Shown here: positions 6,614-57,002 of the stretch, piece after piece
Numbering within the stretch: position 1 is the stretch's first letter
Layout: each line of letters opens with the position of its first letter
Assembly (NCBI GenBank): GCA_964019425.1
Contig: OZ025789.1
Span: forward strand, 620,001 to 684,000
Length of the DNA stretch: 64,000 bases
Direction of reading: 5' to 3'
Source of the DNA: Flectonema sp. DT1601
Taxonomy: Eukaryota
Notes under the pieces: generated by a model
What the model saw: the letters and a program-made list of their open reading frames with translations, nothing else
Databases searched by the model: none
Told to the model about the DNA's origin: nothing
Program-made: the position numbers and the translations under genes

Positions 6614-7570
6614 TTAAAAATAGTCTAATTAGTATTTCAATGACGATAGCTGAACGAGGTCTACCCGCGAAGCAAGAGTCTTGTTTCGTCTGGAATGACG
6701 CAGTTTGTTAACTACTGTTAAGGTATATCAACCTTTAACAGACTACCTATTTAGGCAACACTTTGGTGTGTTGCTTAAATTCTTACGATGATTCATTGTA
6801 CATGGTTTTATAAACTACTGAGAATGAAACAGATAACCTACACAGCGGGGATTGGGGGGGGAAAGAAGAAAAAAAAAAAAAAAAAAAAAAATTAGATTTT
6901 TAAAAAATTAATTTTTTTTTTACTGACTTGAACGAAAAAAAAAAACTTTTCTGATTAACCACAAAGACACACTACAGAAGGCTTGTACTTGGCTTACACT
7001 TTTAAAGACTACTGGTTTTTGTCAGATAGAATTGGCATGTGTTTTCTTCCCCAGTACGATTCTGAAAGATTCTTTTCCGCAAAGTTACTGTTATATTTTT
7101 TTAATTTTAAATAATATTATTTTTTTTGTAGCCTCTTTAACTTATTCTGTCATAATTCAAACCCTTGCTCGAGAGACCCAGTTTGAATCTCAGAGGTGTT
7201 GACGATGACAACAATTAAAGGAAAATGATGGCCACCTACCTGACCGATTAATTCAACCTAAAATCAGATCTAAAACTGACAGTCTCACTTTAGGTTCTAT
7301 TCGTGTTTCCTAAACTTTGTAGTACTTCTTTTTTAAATTCGGTTAAGCCCTTTGCAATGTTAATGGGGCAATTAGGTGTGAACGTGTTCCAGGTTTTTTA
7401 TTTTTCTTTCGTGGTTTGACGGACATTTTGCCAAAGATATTTTTTTTTTTTTTTTTTTTTTGTATCTACTCTACTCTAATCATTTCTTTTTTTTTTCTTA
7501 TTTTCAACAAAGTCGGTCTCCGTGATCTGTAGCTGAAAATTGATCCTCCCAGCCGATTGGAGTCAACTAT

Positions 7571-7710
7571 CTGACTAAAACTTGAAAATACAGACTTAAG
7601 TTCTGAAACTACGCATTCCACGATGTTAAATGGAGCGAGCCGTAGTCCAATGTGTGTTAATTTTATTTAGTTTTTCTTTTTGATTTAGTGCACTATTTTT
7701 ATAAACAAAA
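7571..7710 (+). repeat. Degenerate relative of the retroelement terminal repeat (hammerhead remnant)
   Basis: CTGAAACTACGCATTCCAC (from 7603), CAATGTGT and TTTAGTGCACT...TTTATAA are collinear with 51767-51870; the core CTGA is decayed. Confidence 0.55.
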
Positions 7711-7797
7711 TCTGATGTTCAAGTCAACAAACGAATCTTCTTTCATCATGTCTCAATTGAGATCTGCCTTTGTCTGTTTTGGAGAGCTTCGGAGGGG

Positions 7798-12275: not shown

Positions 12276-12515
12276 AATGTTCTATTTCGATGCTTCATTT
12301 GTACGTCACGTCGGTGTCCTTTTGTATTCTTGCTTCCACTTATTGCTATCTACTTTGTATTACCTAGCCTTGTGAGACAGTAATTTATGGCAACAAAGTT
12401 TGTGTGTCATAGTGAGCGGTCGTGTCAACTTAGTTATAAGAACCTCTTTGAAAAAAAAAAAAAAAAAATTCCAAAAAAGTAAGTAACTTCTTATTGTCCG
12501 ATGGACCGCAGTGTC

Positions 12516-12602
12516 TCTCTTACTTTCTTCGTTGAAGAAGGCTGGGTAAGAAGAATGGTCCGAAGAAAAAGATTTTTTTTTTAATTTTTTTAACCCGAAA
12601 CC
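12516..12602 (+). ncRNA. Decayed non-circularly permuted hammerhead ribozyme (family 2)
   Basis: TTTCTTCG-TTGAAGA...TGGTC-CGAAGAAA...GAAACC, homologous to 22391-22474; core C3 is changed to T and stem II is mismatched. Confidence 0.6.
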
Positions 12603-12825
12603 TAACTATTATTTGTTTGTTGTTCCCCCCTGCGAATTTTCAATTTGATTTTTTTTGATTGCTCTGATTAATGCTAACTAACCGTCCAATGAGATTAAGA
12701 AATCAATGAATGGTCCTTTTATTTTGATTTTTTTTATATTTTGATTTAGTGCATAAATCTTCTATATTGTAACTTAGTATCGTCACGAGTGACTTACTTG
12801 GGAATCTTTTTTAAAACGAGATGAA

Positions 12826-18947: not shown

Positions 18948-19435
18948 ATCACTTTTTTTTTCCACAATTTTCTTTCTAAGTTTTCTTTTTTTTGCACCGA
19001 CGAAGTCGGAGAAGTGCCGTCAGTAATACTGTCTGCGATCAACGAAATATATAAAGACGGTATTTATCTGAATGGTTTAGTTACCATTACTGTATTGTTT
19101 TATTAATCTCTTTGAGATGCATTCTTAGCGACTTTGATAGCTTGTTTAACAACAACGCCTTTTCGTCCTAAAGTTGTATTTCTTTTACTTGAATTTATTC
19201 AAATGCTGCGATGCTATCTCGTAGCAGTCTGGGGGCTTTCTAGTAGCGTTTTTGTTGTGTTTTTTTTAAGGTCAAAACAACTTATTCATGTTTTATAACA
19301 TGACCGCTCCTTAGTTGTTCACATGACTTCACTAACTAACTAACATGAGTTGTGATACTAACATGAGTTGTGTATTAGGTTCTCTTTGTGTTTGTTATAA
19401 ATATTATTCAAACAGTGTGGGGGAGGTAATTTAAT

Positions 19436-21817: not shown

Positions 21818-22110
21818 GTCGTCAAAAAAAGTCAGTTTTTTTTTTTTGTAAATTAGTTCTTGTTGTATTATTCCTACTAATCGTTTCATTATGAAAACGA
21901 TATTTATACACCAGATCTTTCAATTCGATGTATCAAGTTTTCGCAGTTTTTTTTTTTTTTTTTTTAAATATATTTCCAAAACCTCTACCACCATTTTATG
22001 AGGAAGGTTATGCTTCACTAAATAAGACCTACCTTACTGTTTTTTTTTTTTTTTTAAAAAAACAACGAATGGGAGTCCTGTTTAGCCGCGCATGAAAAGT
22101 ACTCCTCACA

Positions 22111-22235
22111 ATCCCCTGGGATTAGGTTCTTCCTTCTGCAGCAGTATTGTGGACCCTCAGAAGAGTCACCCGGTACTCTTTGAGTGTCTACCTAACAGAT
22201 ACTCGGTGGTCTGACGGACTTGCTAACTAACTAAC
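22111..22235 (+). repeat. Structured dispersed repeat, copy A, ending in (TAAC)n
   Basis: Shares GGGATTAGGTTC, AGTATTG, GTGTCTA-CTAAC, TACTCG-TGGT and GCTAACTAAC with 22762-22887. Confidence 0.75.
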
Positions 22236-22320
22236 AATTCCTACGCTTTTTTGATTGACTGATAATTATTAGTACTAACTAACAATTCATTAATTCAGTT
22301 TTTCTTTTTTTTCCCCCCCC

Positions 22321-22380
22321 TTTCTTTTTTTATATTTTAATTTCGTGCACACTTTTTTATAATAAACTCATATTCTAACT
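22321..22380 (+). repeat. 3' fragment of the retroelement terminal repeat
   Basis: TTTCTTTTTTTATATTTTA...GTGCAC...TTTTTTATAATAAACTCATATTCTAACT matches 51826-51882. Confidence 0.85.
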
Positions 22381-22390
22381 AACAATTCAT

Positions 22391-22474
22391 TTCCCTTTGC
22401 TTTCTTCGCTGAAGAGGGCTGTAAGGGGGAATGGTCCGAAGAAAAAGATTGTTTTTAATCTTAGCCCGAAACCA
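22391..22474 (+). ncRNA. Predicted hammerhead ribozyme, non-circularly permuted (family 2), cleavage predicted after C22436 (GUC)
   Basis: Core CTGAAGA 22409-15 and GAAA 22468-71. Stem I 22401-08/22437-44 (8 bp), stem II 22416-20/22463-67, stem III 22432-35/22471-74, extra helix 22391-98/22424-31. Confidence 0.75.
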
Positions 22475-22761
22475 ACTTGTTCGTGTTGTCTTACGAAATT
22501 TTGCCTTTTTTTTTTTTTTTTTGATTGACTGATAACAACTCATTAAATTAATTTTTTTTTCTTTTTTTTTTTCTCCCTTTTCCTCACTTGAAATGATTTT
22601 GTTGTCGTTATTCATAAGTATTGATGTCACAAAAAAAGTATGAAAGTTAAACAACCTTTCGTGCAATTTACACATTTCTATCGCCAAAAAAAATCTTGGG
22701 TCTGTCTAAAAAAACTGATAAATCAGTAACATTAGATTTCCTCGCTTACGCTAAAAAAGTG

Positions 22762-22887
22762 ATCCTCTCAGGGATTAGGTTCGACATAAAGTCGTAGTAT
22801 TGGGGACTCACGGGTGGTTAACCGTTCCACCCTGTTGTGTCTATCTAACCAGTACTCGATGGTATGTCGGGCTAGCTAACTAACTAA
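22762..22887 (+). repeat. Structured dispersed repeat, copy B, ending in (TAAC)n
   Basis: Same conserved blocks as 22111-22235, with a different but still paired central hairpin (GGGTGG/CCACCC). Confidence 0.75.
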
Positions 22888-23030
22888 AATGATACTAACT
22901 AAAACGACAAACTGAACACTTAATATTCTTAATAGATTTGTTTACTATCATTTGTACCATCTTATTATAGTGTCGAAGTATTGGGACATCCTCATGTGTC
23001 TATGTCAGTACATCGGACCCGCTAGCTAAC

Positions 23031-23078
23031 TTATTTTTAGTGCACTTGTTTTTTTTATAATAAATTCATATTCTAACT
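23031..23078 (+). repeat. 3' fragment of the retroelement terminal repeat
   Basis: TTATTTTTAGTGCACTT...TTTATAATAAATTCATATTCTAACT matches the repeat end. Confidence 0.8.
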
Positions 23079-23226
23079 TATTTTGATGTATATATTGCTT
23101 GTTTGGCGGTTACCCTAATCTTTCATTTCTTTCACTATAGGTTGATTTTTTTTTTCATTGTTTTTGGAAAGGTGATTTATTTTTAAATAGAATTTTTTAT
23201 CAGGGGTAACAAAAAAAAAAAACAAA

Positions 23227-24652: not shown

Positions 24653-25691
24653 GTCTGGAATGAAATTCCTTGTTTTCTCAAAAAATGTGAAGCAGACATA
24701 TTTTTGTCATTTTTTGAAATTTTTTTTCAAGAAAAAATTCTCCTTTTTTTTTTTTTTTTTTTTATCGTAAAAATCCCGCCGAAAAAAAAAAAAATGGCAA
24801 AACAAACCAAACCTGTTATTTTATTATTCCTCGTAATTCGTTAAAATAAATGTTATAAATCAAAACACTACTTTTAATTCGTTTTGAGTTTTCCCAACGG
24901 CTCAAACAGAATTCTATTTGTGTGTGTAGCATCACTGTCTTACTTTTACTTTGAGTGTAGTAACTGACTCACGCGTTATCATTTGTGTAAGTCGTATGTA
25001 TAGCTTAGCAAGTATTCATTTGGTTTCTTATCGAATGATGCTTTTCCACGTTTCGCAGTATCGAAGCTGTGTTAGTCGTGATTTCTTTTGAAAACTATTT
25101 TTTTTTCTGGTTTGTGATCCGATATAAAGGAGGGAGAGAGAGAGGAACAAAATAAACCTAAATTAAAATAAACATGTTGTGCTTCATTTTTCCAAAAAAA
25201 AAAAAAAAAAAAAAAATTATGAAAAATTCTCTTTCCTTCTACAGTAGCTTTTCTTTTTTCTATTTTTTTTTGTGGGTGTTTTTTTTTCTTTTTTCTTAAC
25301 CCAATGAGAGGTTCAAAAAGCGTAAAGACAACGACCAAAAACGTGCAAGACATCCAAGACAGTAGTCACAAGTACATTACTTGTGATGCCTTACAAATTA
25401 AAACGGTAACTCAGAAGAACACAGTTATCCGATTAAAAAAAAAAAAAAAACAAATATAAAAAAAAAAACGTTTTGCCTTTTTTTTCTTTAAGTCTCCTCT
25501 CTACTTACGCGTTGTCACAAAATAAAGACTTGAGGGGAAAAAAAAAAAAAAAAAAAAGCAACTTCTGATTATCCACATCTATGAAAATGGTGTGAGTAGC
25601 AGCAGTGTTTCTTTATCAGAATGAGTAGTGTTAATGTTATTATTGTTTTCACTCACAAACAGGTGTTTTATCTTAACAAGATAGAGCCTAC

Positions 25692-25860
25692 AATAAACTC
25701 ATATTCTAACTAAATAAGAACTTACTGATGAAGGCCTAAGAGTATAAGATTAAGGCTCCTGAAACTACGTATTCCACAAGTGTATTATGGAACAGCAGAA
25801 CAATTGTGTTTTTTTATAATTTTTCTTTTTTTTATATTTTCATTTAGCGTACTTTTTTAT
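25692..25860 (+). repeat. Solo, internally deleted copy of the hammerhead-bearing terminal repeat
   Basis: 25717-25860 aligns to 51717-51862 with a 10-nt deletion in loop II; preceded by the repeat's own 3' end AATAAACTCATATTCTAACT (25692-25711). Confidence 0.9.
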
Positions 25861-51132: not shown

Positions 51133-51879
<747 letters not shown>

Positions 51880-52584
51880 ACTTCGGTAACTACCATGTGG
51901 GACTCGCTTAGGGTCTACCAGTGGAGGTTGCCAAGCTGCTTCTAGGAAGCAGCATATGACGGGGTATTTCGGTTCTTCGTAACCACTTTCCCTGCAAGGT
52001 GCATTCTACCTAAAGACTCCACCAAGCTAACATATGGCGAGGAGGAGCATGACTGACCATTTCAGTCATTTTCTGCATTAACATAATATTATGTTCCAAC
52101 GAATTATTTTGATATTTATTTTTCTTTTATTTCCCCATTTTTATTTTCCTAGAAACGCAATTTTGATTATTACTTTTATTTACATCTTTTACCACGGTAA
52201 GGTAATGTGAAACGGGCCCTGCTCATCTCTCTATTTTACTCCTTTAAAACTATTTTCCTTTTCTTTCTAAATTAATCTCTCCTCTCTACTTAGTCAACGA
52301 GCAAGATTTAACCTGGACCCCTTCTAGCTCTCCACCTAGCAACGAACAACGTTTAGCCTACGTTTTTTACCGTTCGAAATTAGGTATGCTTTTAGGGCAC
52401 GAAAGGCTATGAGCTTAGCGGATAAGTGGTTTCTGATCGTGTTAAGATAACCCCCCTCTCTCTGAGGGTAGAAGTCGATACCCGCCTACAAAAAACTTCT
52501 GTAAGCACGAGGTTTCTTCGAATACTTTTAGTTCTCTTCCTTTAAAGAGAAAAAGCCGCCGCTTTAGGCAAAAAAATATTTCAC

Positions 52585-55500
52585 ATGCGACACCCGAACT
52601 ATTTTAGGACGGGACCCAATGCAAAGGGGTATAACTTTGCGAAAAAACCCGGAGGGGTCGAAAACTCAAAGTTTTGGGGATTCCCAAAACAACAACAAAA
52701 AAGCAATAACCAAAGATTTCAATCAAAAAACGTTTCTAGACCCCATTTTTCCCGCCCCCATTCCCATTCACCAGTCAATGCAAACAAAGCGCTACGGACA
52801 GCGCTTTTTAAAGTCCTGCCTTTAAGGGACTTCCTTCTCAGGAAAATCACGCACACCGGCAAGACTCTACGTGTTTTAGTAGAACAGCGAAGCGGTAAAC
52901 AGCTACCGTTTAATGCAATTAATACAGCAATTCGCAGCGTGGGTGCGGGGAACCTTCGTATCATCATCGAGGGAACAGCAAATCAGCGCGCACAACAGCA
53001 AAGTTACAACCAGAACCCATGGAAAAAGAGCCAGATGAAAAAAGTAGATCATCTGTTTGCCAAACCATCACAGCACCGGCACAGAAGAAGTTACGGGCAA
53101 CAACGAGGCGGCCGTCTTAGACACTCGCCGCTGTCCAACTTCCACCATCGAAGCGAAAACGTGCAACACCGAAACAAGCGAAACTTCGATGGTATTGACT
53201 GGAAGTTATATGAGAAGAGCTGCAATAGGCAAAGGATGTCTTTCGTAAGAAGAAACCTCTCTCATCGTAAAATCCGCGGAAAACAACCAGGACTTCGAAC
53301 TTGCGGTGTAATCTATGCACTGTTTAGACGCTCCGACGGCAAAGTAATATACGTCGGCCAGACAGCTAACTCAGCACTGGAGCGAGCGCAGTCCCACTGG
53401 TACCAAGCAAAGAAGTGGTCACGTGACAGAAGGCAGAACGAAAATCGTCTGATGCAATACCTGTCACAGGAAAGGCTACCTCCACTAACAATCCCACTCG
53501 AGAAAATCCCAAGCAATCATTACCACAATGCTTCGGACTTCTACAGAGCTGCTGCCCCTCGAGAGCAGCATTATATTAATAGTTTTGGAAAACTTCTAAA
53601 TGTGAGAGGTTATTACTCACCAAAGCTAAGCTCTCAACGATCGAGAAAACACCAAAACCGCCCGCCACGCCCTGTTCGCCAACAACAGATGCCATCTTTC
53701 AAGTCACAGAATGTATACGAGCAGAACAGGTTTTATTTCAGTGAAGTTAACGATGATGGCGAGGACTTTGAATTATTCCAACAATCAAAACCAACCGCAA
53801 CAATTACATTAGAAAATGGTGTGTCATTTGAAGTTGAGACTTCCTACAAATGGTTGCCATCGAAGCTCAACTTTTTATTTGCTATGCCTGAAGACGAATT
53901 TTCGAACTACGACTTTACTCGTTGGCAAACAAATACAACTACAAAGGTACTTCAATTCCTTCGTTCTAATTTCCACCAAGAACGTTACACAGCCCGTGTA
54001 AAGTACCTCGAGAGCTGCTTTATGGAAAGATTGAATCCAGCAACACTACGCCGTCTCAAAAACAAAAAGGAAGCAAACAGCTACTGGCTTAAACTGAACG
54101 TCAGCCACAAGGCCTTAGATAGATTGAATCTAGGAGCAATTCTACACAGTGACGAAGTTAAGGCAGTCTGTCCAAATTTAAAAACCTTAAGCAGAACTAG
54201 AATCTGTCACAAACTGGGTACAACTGTAGGAGATATTGTATTAAACGCCACTTCTGTTGGGAATGGATGCGATGAACCCCTCTGTTCACCATGTCCCTGT
54301 TGTACTCTCGTTCCAGGAAGTATTAAATTCGATGGCCACGCCTGCGGTCTAGCAGTAAATCTTCCCGTATCTGCCGAATTACGAGATTTCTTTGCACGAG
54401 GACAGAAATTCAGAGTTCCAAAGCACCCCGCTGCAGCAATGGACTCGCTCGAAAGCGACATAGCAGTTTACGTAGATAAAGCTTACAGAAACACCACTGA
54501 CGATATTAAACTTCGCTTCAAAAACGTAATTCTTAAGCATCTCCACACCAAACTGAGCCGAGACCTTTCATTCCTTGACTCCCCGCTGTCAAGCAAAGCT
54601 CTCAAAGAACTTTCTTCACTACAAAATTCGATGGTTCTCTTAAAAGTAGACAAAGGACAACATGATATTGGTTTCATCTGTAAATCCTTCTACCTGAGTC
54701 TCCTCAGCAAACAATTAGGAGGTCCAGCCTATCAACAATTGAAAGCAACAGAGGAAATCACTCTAGCCTTCTTAGCTGAGAATAATAAAATCTTAGGAAA
54801 CAAGCATGCAGATAGACTACCACATCTCTACGGCATGATTAAATTGCACAAGTCAGCTATTGGGATGAGATGGATTTCGGGAGCCTCTTCACTCACAGGA
54901 ACGGAGAAGCAGCGTCAATTAGACAAGGAGCACAAAACGGCACCCGCAACAGCCACAACACACGCCCATCTGCATCTATCAAGTATTCTTAAAAATGTGA
55001 TGGCTCTACTAAAAGAAAAAGATATGAATTCAAAATACAAACGTTATTGGATAGTCGAATCTGATAAAGACATAGCTGCTGATATTAAATTAAACACAAC
55101 TCGACTAAAAGGCCTATCTCCCAAGACGCACGACTTCACTACGATGTATACACGACTACCCCACCAGGAGATCAAAGATAAAGTGAATGAAGCAATTAAA
55201 GAAGCATTCGAATTCAAGAATATTATGCGACTTGAATCTAATGACCCTGCGACCTACCGTGCTTTATCACAGTTAGAATGTAGAGCGCTTCTAAGCTTTT
55301 GTGTGGATAATTCTCTAATTTCAATGAGAGGAAAACTATGGAGACAAGTAGTTGGCATTCCCATGGGCGGCAACGCAAGTAGCGATATAGCTAATCTCTA
55401 CTGTTACAGAATCGAATCTAAATTTATGGATGACCTTGTAGCAAAAGGAGAGTTAGATTTAGCACGCAAACACGACTACTCTTGCCGGTACATAGACGAT

Positions 55501-56688
55501 TTCCTTACATGGAACTGCAACCCACCACCAGCAGAATTATACTCCATGAACTACACCGAGACCTCTAATGGTATTGATGATGTTTCATACATTGGAATTA
55601 GAATCCGAATCGAAACCACCAGATCAAACAACAGGTGGATACGTCTAAGCGTTAACGACAAAGCGCGTGGTTGGCATATCATACCAACAAGATTCACCCA
55701 CCAGCACTCAGCTGCTCAAGAATCGATGGGTACTGGTATCTTCACCACCATGCTCCTACGAGCACTCAGAATCTGTAATAATCAGGCAGATCTTCTACAA
55801 GAGCTCGAGTTCGTAACATACAGACTACTCAACCGAGGATACAAGTTTAAGAACCTCGCAGTAGCTTGTCACAGCTTTATCAACTTATATATTGACGATG
55901 GCAATGTTGCAGCTGCAATTCGAAGACGACTAAATATTACTTCCGAAAAGTTTAATCATGGTATCCCTGTAAGCGACGAAAAAGACACCATTAATCATAA
56001 AAGTTCCACACTTCACACCTTAGACAAACGATTCCCAATACAATCACATCAATCTTCAGGGGAAGGTCTAATCGGAGGTGAGTGTGGATGGGCATCGCTG
56101 AATTTTGTTGCAGACCATCTTTATCTTGACCGAATTAATTTCAGCTATTTGCAAGAACTACAACAAACATTCTACGAAGAACATCAAAAAGTAGAACCTG
56201 GCAGCAACGAGCAAAAACCATCCCCGGATGGTTGGTTCTCTTTAACCGTTCTGGGGGTAGCAAGTAAACATAAACTCAACAGGGAAATCCACCAATATGT
56301 AGATCCCAGTTCTATGGACTACCCAACAATAGCCGCCGCATTCATTTTAAACAAAGCTGGTGCTAGAATGTCACACTACATGGTGGCCCTTGTCTCCTTT
56401 GATTCCATTATTGTTAGAGACATTCTCAAAGGAGCGACAGACCGACGATTATCATTCGACCATTTTGACAGACATTTTAAACGCCCAGAATATTGTTTTC
56501 ACATGATTTTAAGAAAAACTCTGCAGGATAATAATAATGATAACGACTGTACCATGGCACCCTCGAATGAAGGAATTCTACTCCTCACCAACACTAAGGA
56601 AAAGCGCAAGAAAGACGACTACAGCTCCGATGAAGGAGAACTCGCACTCGTAATAAAACGAACAGATGTAGAAGAGATAGAACGCTGA
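52585..56688 (+). CDS. Retroelement polyprotein: basic N-terminus, GIY-YIG endonuclease, CxC/H linker, PLE reverse transcriptase, Josephin-like protease
   Basis: GVIYALF...IYVGQT...R...H...REQHYI...LLN; CPC...GH...RGQKFR; DKG, KLHK, DFTTMYT, QVVGIPMGGNAS, RYIDDF, SYIGI. Confidence 0.92.
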   Translation: MRHPNYFRTGPNAKGYNFAKKPGGVENSKFWGFPKQQQKSNNQRFQSKNVSRPHFSRPHSHSPVNANKALRTALFKVLPLRDFLLRKITHTGKTLRVLVEQRSGKQLPFNAINTAIRSVGAGNLRIIIEGTANQRAQQQSYNQNPWKKSQMKKVDHLFAKPSQHRHRRSYGQQRGGRLRHSPLSNFHHRSENVQHRNKRNFDGIDWKLYEKSCNRQRMSFVRRNLSHRKIRGKQPGLRTCGVIYALFRRSDGKVIYVGQTANSALERAQSHWYQAKKWSRDRRQNENRLMQYLSQERLPPLTIPLEKIPSNHYHNASDFYRAAAPREQHYINSFGKLLNVRGYYSPKLSSQRSRKHQNRPPRPVRQQQMPSFKSQNVYEQNRFYFSEVNDDGEDFELFQQSKPTATITLENGVSFEVETSYKWLPSKLNFLFAMPEDEFSNYDFTRWQTNTTTKVLQFLRSNFHQERYTARVKYLESCFMERLNPATLRRLKNKKEANSYWLKLNVSHKALDRLNLGAILHSDEVKAVCPNLKTLSRTRICHKLGTTVGDIVLNATSVGNGCDEPLCSPCPCCTLVPGSIKFDGHACGLAVNLPVSAELRDFFARGQKFRVPKHPAAAMDSLESDIAVYVDKAYRNTTDDIKLRFKNVILKHLHTKLSRDLSFLDSPLSSKALKELSSLQNSMVLLKVDKGQHDIGFICKSFYLSLLSKQLGGPAYQQLKATEEITLAFLAENNKILGNKHADRLPHLYGMIKLHKSAIGMRWISGASSLTGTEKQRQLDKEHKTAPATATTHAHLHLSSILKNVMALLKEKDMNSKYKRYWIVESDKDIAADIKLNTTRLKGLSPKTHDFTTMYTRLPHQEIKDKVNEAIKEAFEFKNIMRLESNDPATYRALSQLECRALLSFCVDNSLISMRGKLWRQVVGIPMGGNASSDIANLYCYRIESKFMDDLVAKGELDLARKHDYSCRYIDDFLTWNCNPPPAELYSMNYTETSNGIDDVSYIGIRIRIETTRSNNRWIRLSVNDKARGWHIIPTRFTHQHSAAQESMGTGIFTTMLLRALRICNNQADLLQELEFVTYRLLNRGYKFKNLAVACHSFINLYIDDGNVAAAIRRRLNITSEKFNHGIPVSDEKDTINHKSSTLHTLDKRFPIQSHQSSGEGLIGGECGWASLNFVADHLYLDRINFSYLQELQQTFYEEHQKVEPGSNEQKPSPDGWFSLTVLGVASKHKLNREIHQYVDPSSMDYPTIAAAFILNKAGARMSHYMVALVSFDSIIVRDILKGATDRRLSFDHFDRHFKRPEYCFHMILRKTLQDNNNDNDCTMAPSNEGILLLTNTKEKRKKDDYSSDEGELALVIKRTDVEEIER

Positions 56689-56742
56689 TCAAAAGCAAAT
56701 ATATGCTAGCCCGTCCTGGCGAGCTCCGATGGACATTAAGAA

Positions 56743-56971
56743 ATCAGTTCTTTTAAAATAGACCAATTGATGGATCCGATTTATTATTTAACTGGAATGA
56801 AGTCCCTCAGAACTTACTGATGAAGGCCTAAGAGGGACAAGTAGTATAAGATTAAGGCCTGAAACTACGTATTCCACAGTGTATTATGGAACAGCAGAAC
56901 AATGTGTTTTTATAACTTTTCTTTTTTATATTTTATTTTAGTGCACTTTTTTATAACAAACTCATATTCTA
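56743..56971 (+). repeat. Right pseudo-LTR (229 bp), followed by about three TATC units
   Basis: Appears identical to 51651-51879; continues TCTATCTATCT to 56982. Confidence 0.95.
56802..56868 (+). ncRNA. Second copy of the family 1 hammerhead, cleavage predicted after A56846
   Basis: Same sequence as 51710-51776 at an offset of 5092 bp. Confidence 0.8.
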
Positions 56972-57002
56972 TCTATCTATCTAAAACAGATAGAAACCAG
57001 CA

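Follow-up and report, generated by a model that had tools for sequence, protein, structure and literature searches.

Does a short stretch of intergenic DNA in a diplonemid genome encode a self-cleaving ribozyme, and if so, what brought it there? A first-pass annotation of our window (the whole 64,000-nucleotide stretch of Flectonema sp. DT1601 analyzed here) had proposed a hammerhead with permuted strands at 22391-22474, belonging to the second of two families. This motif occupies 84 bases of the + strand and combines a complete core (CUGAAGA, GUC, and GAAA) with four helices. All of the core positions checked (C3, U4, G5, A6, N7, G8, A9, G12, A13, A14, A15.1, U16.1, and H17) are present. The blocks run 5′ to 3′ in the order C (22409), S (22436), and G (22468), a non-circular arrangement known as type CSG. 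Checked pair by pair, stems I, II, and III abut the core blocks with 8, 5, and 4 Watson–Crick pairs, respectively. The parts of the motif and of the tail downstream are as follows.

22392-22400/22421-22429, +: joining helix of stems I and II, then a short linker to 22431; a one-base slip is possible
22401-22408/22437-22444, +: stem I, 8/8 Watson–Crick
22409-22415, +: catalytic core block C, CUGAAGA (C3-A9, N7 = A), read from the sequence
22416-22420/22463-22467, +: stem II (G10.1 first), 5/5 Watson–Crick
22432-22435/22471-22474, +: stem III, 4/4 Watson–Crick, including U16.1-A15.1
22434-22436, +: GUC triplet, predicted cut 3′ of C22436 by analogy with CSG-1 and CSG-2 (PMC10085705)
22445-22450/22457-22462, +: hairpin of 6 bp within the stem I-stem II linker (insert 22445-22462), 6/6 Watson–Crick
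22468-22471, +: block G, GAAA, between the 3′ arms of stems II and III
22480-22497, +: hairpin 3′ of the ribozyme, starting with UUC and ending with GAA; the family-1 terminal repeat has a counterpart at the corresponding position
22506-22535, +: T tract and family-2 3′ end motif, recurring at 22247-22265 and about 12650-12670

All four helices therefore pair as the annotation had claimed, as does its linker hairpin, AAGATT/AATCTT. In the register that it gave for the fourth, joining helix (22391-22398/22424-22431), there are six Watson–Crick and two GU pairs, worth -8.2 kcal/mol. A register one base over (22390-22400/22421-22431), with eight Watson–Crick and three GU pairs, is stabler at -12.9 kcal/mol and connects stems I and II without linkers; with its 9-11 pairs, this is the helix that type CSG calls for. 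Slippage between the registers is possible because of the G5 run. Bases 22387-22391 could extend the helix, yet they are part of a duplicated target described below. We consider it nearly certain that 22391-22474 is a real type-CSG hammerhead motif.

The topology itself has already been published. In the scheme of Eckert et al. (2023; PMC10085705), a hammerhead consists of blocks C, S, and G. They described type CSG from two unique soil-metagenome sequences, named CSG-1 and CSG-2, which are near-identical and have no known organism, host, or role in the passages on this type. Both cut at the predicted site in vitro, at 0.004 and about 0.026 per min, and these authors graded the evidence that the type is biologically relevant as weaker. 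The Flectonema motif shares with CSG-1 and CSG-2, as described there, the order C-S-G, stems I-III, the full core, G10.1-C11.1, the GUC site, and a helix with its 5′ arm ahead of stem I and its 3′ arm behind stem II. It differs from them in its eukaryotic genome, its retroelement context, A at N7, an 8-bp stem I, and a 4-bp stem III, and its 18-base hairpin linker is missing both from the published pair and from family 1. The motif would escape the descriptors in that paper's supplement, which ask for CUGAUGA and for linkers no longer than 10 and 8. By analogy with CSG-1 and CSG-2, cleavage is predicted, and the motif is likely to be active as a ribozyme in vitro.

Could the core and its four helices be a chance product of intergenic DNA rich in T and A? 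Stem I and the linker hairpin are AU-rich, and nested folding of the whole region does not reveal the fold (z-score just -1.72). Rfam gives no match at its gathering score and, at E up to 10 over 22000-23100, six weak matches that include no ribozyme. Compared with the Rfam models of canonical type I, II, and III hammerheads, which have circular order and a three-way junction, 22391-22474 belongs to none of them. The lack of a nested-fold signal and of an Rfam match is expected, because the fold is a double pseudoknot. Against chance stands a shuffling test. The whole window was shuffled 6,449 times in 2-kb blocks with dinucleotides preserved, and both strands were scored with GU pairs permitted, at thresholds chosen after the motif was seen. 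The shuffles produced 41 loose matches (helices of at least 4/4/4) and a single match with at least 18 core pairs; none of the 6,449 equaled the motif in having at least 18 core pairs plus a fourth helix of at least 8. Moreover, the fold recurs in two terminal repeats and a diverged copy. A scan of the window for all six block orders returned three matches (22409, 51725, and 56817), all of type CSG and all on the + strand, which bears out the annotation's statement that families 1 and 2 have the same permuted fold. A chance fold, which it had also thought unlikely, is indeed very unlikely, and this explanation is close to refuted.

Searches of viral and metagenome contigs with the family-2 pattern gave no matches. 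A looser CUUA/UAAG-type CSG pattern gave none in viral contigs and one in metagenomes (L001), which has no stem II and lies on the contig of an unrelated mobile element; we set it aside as a chance match.

The other two matches in the scan identify a carrier. The + strand carries, at 51653-56974, a Chlamys-like Penelope element that appears intact. Each of its terminal repeats contains a CSG hammerhead, and it lies inserted after a TCTA array of about 500 bases.

51653-51882, +: 5′ terminal repeat (pLTR) with a CSG hammerhead at 51710-51776, from the order scan and repeat alignment
52546-56688, +: frame of 1,380 aa, Chlamys-like, with N-terminal GIY-YIG, CxC, DKG, and reverse transcriptase
56745-56974, +: 3′ terminal repeat with a CSG hammerhead at 56802-56868, the same as the 5′ repeat at 229/230 bases

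Its motifs match the description of Chlamys elements given by Craig et al. (2021; PMC8557442). The frame has an N-terminal GIY-YIG domain with neither CCHH nor the CX2-5CxxC linker (there is one cysteine in residues 246-370), a CxC motif (CPC at 583), and a DK motif (DKG at 702); the Pfam GIY-YIG match has an E of 0.0074, short of the cut-off. The pLTRs and a microsatellite target are further features in common with the Naiad and Chlamys elements described there. The target here consists of CTA(A/T) repeats, whereas the targets listed for Naiad and Chlamys are (TA)n, (CA)n, or (C)n, and the relevant passages and tables of PMC8557442 include no diplonemid member.

Relatives of the family-1 protein occur in Flectonema (57% identity) and, at about 40%, among several Diplonema papillatum proteins that carry other names. 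Proteins P0029, P0032, P0033, and P0177-P0182, named in D. papillatum as kinesin-like, ubiquitin hydrolase, or hypothetical, are relatives of the Penelope reverse transcriptase, and the word "Penelope" is absent from the main text of the D. papillatum genome paper (PMC10161547). At its C terminus, the family-1 protein has an extension that is possibly a protease domain similar to Josephin or UCH; relatives of the protein carry PF00443/PF02099. No relatives of the Penelope reverse transcriptase were confirmed in viral or prokaryotic contigs. Penelope protein fragments of 54-63% identity lie on long contigs (three were looked up among eight proteins) and are not tied to this genome or to the ribozyme.

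Decayed family-1 tails are also present on the + strand at 25689-25860 and 7560-7712. The former (25717) lacks 10 bases, among them the 5′ arm of stem III, and the latter (7596) represents a 75% subfamily, whose 3′ part is resembled by 12684-12760. In addition, a stretch of the Penelope element's 5′ untranslated region (52246-52292) is matched at 81% by 25465-25507.

The ribozyme at 22391-22474 does not lie in such an element. Instead, it is found where insertions are nested at a CTAACTAAC target that occurs repeatedly. The components of this nest, together with a second family-2 copy elsewhere, are listed here.

22247-22274, +: 3′ end of family 2, truncated at its 5′ side and inserted separately in this nest, from a repeat match and an X1 contig
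22320-22378, +: piece from the 3′ terminus of the family-1 Penelope repeat, at the same target, 88.5% to 51824-51882
22375-22391, +: left target copy, CTAACTAAC-led, a putative target-site duplication identical to 22275-22291
22533-22580, +: right target copy, first bases lost, continuing as flank, 82% to 22280-22312
12513-12675, +: decayed second family-2 copy, in which 12520-12607 is 81% identical to the 22391-22474 motif

A target starting with CTAACTAACAATTC occurs four times, at 22227 (14 bases), 22275 (about 45), 22375 (17), and 22533 (start lost). Between these copies lie the family-2 3′ end, the family-1 3′ end, and the piece that bears the ribozyme, a pattern that repeated rounds of target-primed insertion at a single site would be expected to leave. 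The duplication around the ribozyme is imperfect, since its right copy lacks the first bases. The same CTA(A/T) repeats, as CTAACT or CTATCT, also adjoin the ends of family 1. All pieces lie on the gene strand, at five separate loci; five are too few for this bias to be more than suggestive.

The same target appears elsewhere nearby. At 19332-19370, a short direct repeat comes after CTAACTAAC; this may be an insertion site that is empty or has decayed. A third, structured repeat family also ends at CTAACTAAC and is present on the + strand at 22118-22222, 22771-22875, and 22975-23030. Two of its copies are 71% alike, with 7/28 predicted pairs changed on both sides; a pseudoknot of UUAGGU with A(C/U)CUAA is possible, Rfam has no match, and 22661-22902 is identical to an X1 contig. 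This family is a candidate tail or ribozyme of another element. Judged by eye against consensus features, it fits neither HDV-like, pistol, nor twister ribozymes. A weak match at 22656-22681 to a degenerate family-1 end that would close a tandem unit was rejected, as that stretch starts the third-family X1 contig.

What do the other family-2 pieces say about the origin of the ribozyme? The annotation had predicted a related retroelement family elsewhere in the genome. Family 2 is indeed represented by the diverged copy at 12520-12607, the 3′ end at 22247-22274, and an X1 contig; its parent element was not found in the window. The 12520 copy keeps stem I intact and, in the joining helix, the six pairs on the junction side; it breaks one pair in each of stems II and III, along with C3 to U, G10.1 to A, and two mismatches in the distal joining helix. 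Within the six kept pairs, C-G has become U-A, U-G has become C-G, and G-U has become A-U, so that one pair has changed on both sides. Covariation within family 2 thus amounts to three pair-keeping changes in one helix of two sequences which, even with the different but paired helices of family 1, are too few for statistics.

Further instances of the family-2 3′ end motif lie at 22253 and 12657. The motif is also found in sequencing run X1, the one run among those screened that shares sequence with the window (0.16 of words), on a 261-base contig whose host organism may not be this one. The 229 letters upstream in that contig are different, with the last 30 resembling 22486-22515. Neither of the two X1 contigs that match the window spans the ribozyme, and X1 gave no helix variants; no RNA sequencing runs are listed among those matching the window.

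The annotation was right that families 1 and 2 differ in sequence while their helices pair in both, but they look like diverged homologues and not like independent inventions. They have a common 11-base linker between stems II and III, and their alignment score was reached by just 26 of 5,000 shuffles that preserved core and helices. Because of this linker and this score, the two families are probably homologous. Both also have the UUC...GAA hairpin and T tract 3′ of the ribozyme, and the layout of the family-2 tail is that of the two CSG-bearing terminal repeats of element 51653-56974. Family 2 has the 5′ truncation, common 3′ end, and duplicated simple-repeat target (the right duplicate imperfect) of a Penelope tail. 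From these resemblances, we judge it very probable that 22391-22474 is Penelope-derived. Position in a terminal repeat or 3′ tail, on the sense strand, is likewise typical of the pLTR hammerheads of Penelope-like elements (PMC11167929; Cervera and de la Peña 2014). As described in these sources, those are type I, of circular order, and often minimal, in contrast to the double pseudoknot found here, whose stems are long enough for a monomer to act.

Our preferred reading goes a step further, and we hold it with reasonable confidence: the sequence is a type-CSG hammerhead with a predicted cut after C22436, likely the 5′-truncated tail of a second Penelope-like family at the CTAACTAAC target. In the mechanism that we propose, the joining helix would be the first to form and would dock stems I and II. 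The 5-pair hairpin that it encloses would at first bury CUGAAGA, as in the nested minimum-energy fold; stems I and II would next displace this weak hairpin, and the core would close only once GAAA, the last block, had been transcribed. Summed stacking energies are -54.3 kcal/mol for the active fold and -36.8 kcal/mol for the nested alternative, a gain of about 17 with loop and pseudoknot costs left out. The core is hidden in a hairpin of the nested fold, and stem III, a short stem of 4 pairs, loses three bases to the joining helix when constructs are longer. According to these models, the competing hairpin could slow folding.

Cleavage would leave a cyclic phosphate and a 5′-OH. If a full-length parent had the ribozyme in each terminal repeat, two cuts would free a unit-length RNA from a read-through polycistronic transcript, a role proposed for Penelope hammerheads, as cited in PMC8557442. 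The inserted copy would itself derive from uncut or re-ligated RNA, because sequence is kept on both sides of the cut site. This agrees with work on a Penelope enzyme for which uncut RNA was the main substrate in vitro (PMC11167929).

Such a truncated tail must be weighed against a family 2 that never had a coding parent. Family 2 would then be a short retrozyme- or SINE-like unit, non-coding and about 145 bases long, that the enzyme of family 1 mobilizes in trans. Both ribozyme-bearing copies start near the 5′ edge of the ribozyme and have similar lengths, the target is common with family 1, and the window has no second reading frame: tblastn of the window with the family-1 protein and four relatives found the family-1 frame alone, and no reverse transcriptase or GIY-YIG frame lies beside either ribozyme-bearing copy in the window. 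Published precedents include non-autonomous Chlamys derivatives (PMC8557442) and Penelope-derived retrozymes (bioRxiv 10.64898/2026.07.22.740005). However, 5′-truncated copies would lack a frame in any case, and family-1 fragment 25717 is also cut at the 5′ edge of its ribozyme, so truncation can give that boundary. Non-autonomous Chlamys elements, as described in PMC8557442, generally share the 3′ end of their partner, whereas that of family 2 differs from family 1, and the 229 letters upstream of the 3′ end in the X1 contig are longer than the unit. Nor is the unit in a tandem array: non-LTR retrozymes are tandem units, each with a type I hammerhead, and family 2 occurs as single dispersed copies with CSG order. 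We therefore regard a purely non-coding family as unlikely, and on balance favor a coding parent of its own for family 2.

Another conceivable reading is that the host has kept this copy as a processing signal. The neighboring genes, one RING/TRAF-like and one for phenylalanine hydroxylase, point the same way, and the ribozyme sits between them on the sense strand. The hydroxylase has its best match with a named species in Diplonema papillatum (58%), which points to a diplonemid host, and nearly all long frames in the window are on one strand. Diplonemid genes form unidirectional clusters with inferred polycistronic transcription (PMC10161547), so that cleavage here would cut a polycistron between the two genes; further, 22391-22474 is perfectly intact, and its sister copy is decayed. 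A young insertion accounts for this intactness without selection, however, and the location inside stacked insertions with target duplications also speaks against a host function, to which we assign only a slim chance. A derivation from a truncated Penelope tail remains the reading that we prefer.

A literature search, with most subscription papers and bioRxiv supplements outside its scope, found no paper that connects type CSG with Penelope elements or with any eukaryote by name. The papers found describe the topology, but not this host, this carrier, or a second family. The window thereby supplies two divergent CSG families in a real genome, along with a carrier element. In euglenozoan genomes with polycistronic transcription, the L1Tc/ingi elements of trypanosomatids also have a ribozyme; as described in PMC12278014, it is HDV-like and thus of another class, and it sits at the 5′ end of a LINE.

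These observations may bear on an apparent lack of hammerheads in Naiad and Chlamys elements. Naiads were reported without a canonical hammerhead, and cores were flagged with their second half 35-50 bases off (PMC8557442). The spacing of 37 in family 1 agrees with this "HHR_half_core" range, and that of 52 in family 2 nearly does. One possible answer is that searches presumed circular strand order. We searched the supplement of PMC8557442 for 6 of 16 CTGANGAN words, some occurrences being hidden by line breaks, and judged the folds by eye. The Chlamys consensus file gave no place that fits CSG (0/18), even though the element here is Chlamys-like. Among 22 CUGANGA places in the Naiad consensus file, 5 fit CSG with four helices, 5 fit another order, and 12 fit neither. 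The CSG-fitting records are Naiad-2_Nbra and Naiad-3_Nbra, both identified by their headers, the record preceding Naiad-2_Nbra, and two nematode records placed by file order only. We give slightly better than even odds to a broader proposal, in which Naiad and Chlamys elements would carry knotted hammerheads across eukaryotes. Type CSG would be theirs in diplonemids and nematodes, with several families in this genome; these elements would be the home of the orphan CSG sequences, and the ribozymes would free element RNA from diplonemid polycistrons.

The tails of Physarum-Pp1 and Pp2, considered as CSG candidates, were read by eye as type I with a very long stem II insert (PMC8557442, supplement part 51). 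The five Naiad tails of the other order (supplement parts 10-12 and 19) appear, again by eye, to have CUGANGA last and separated from its stem II arm.
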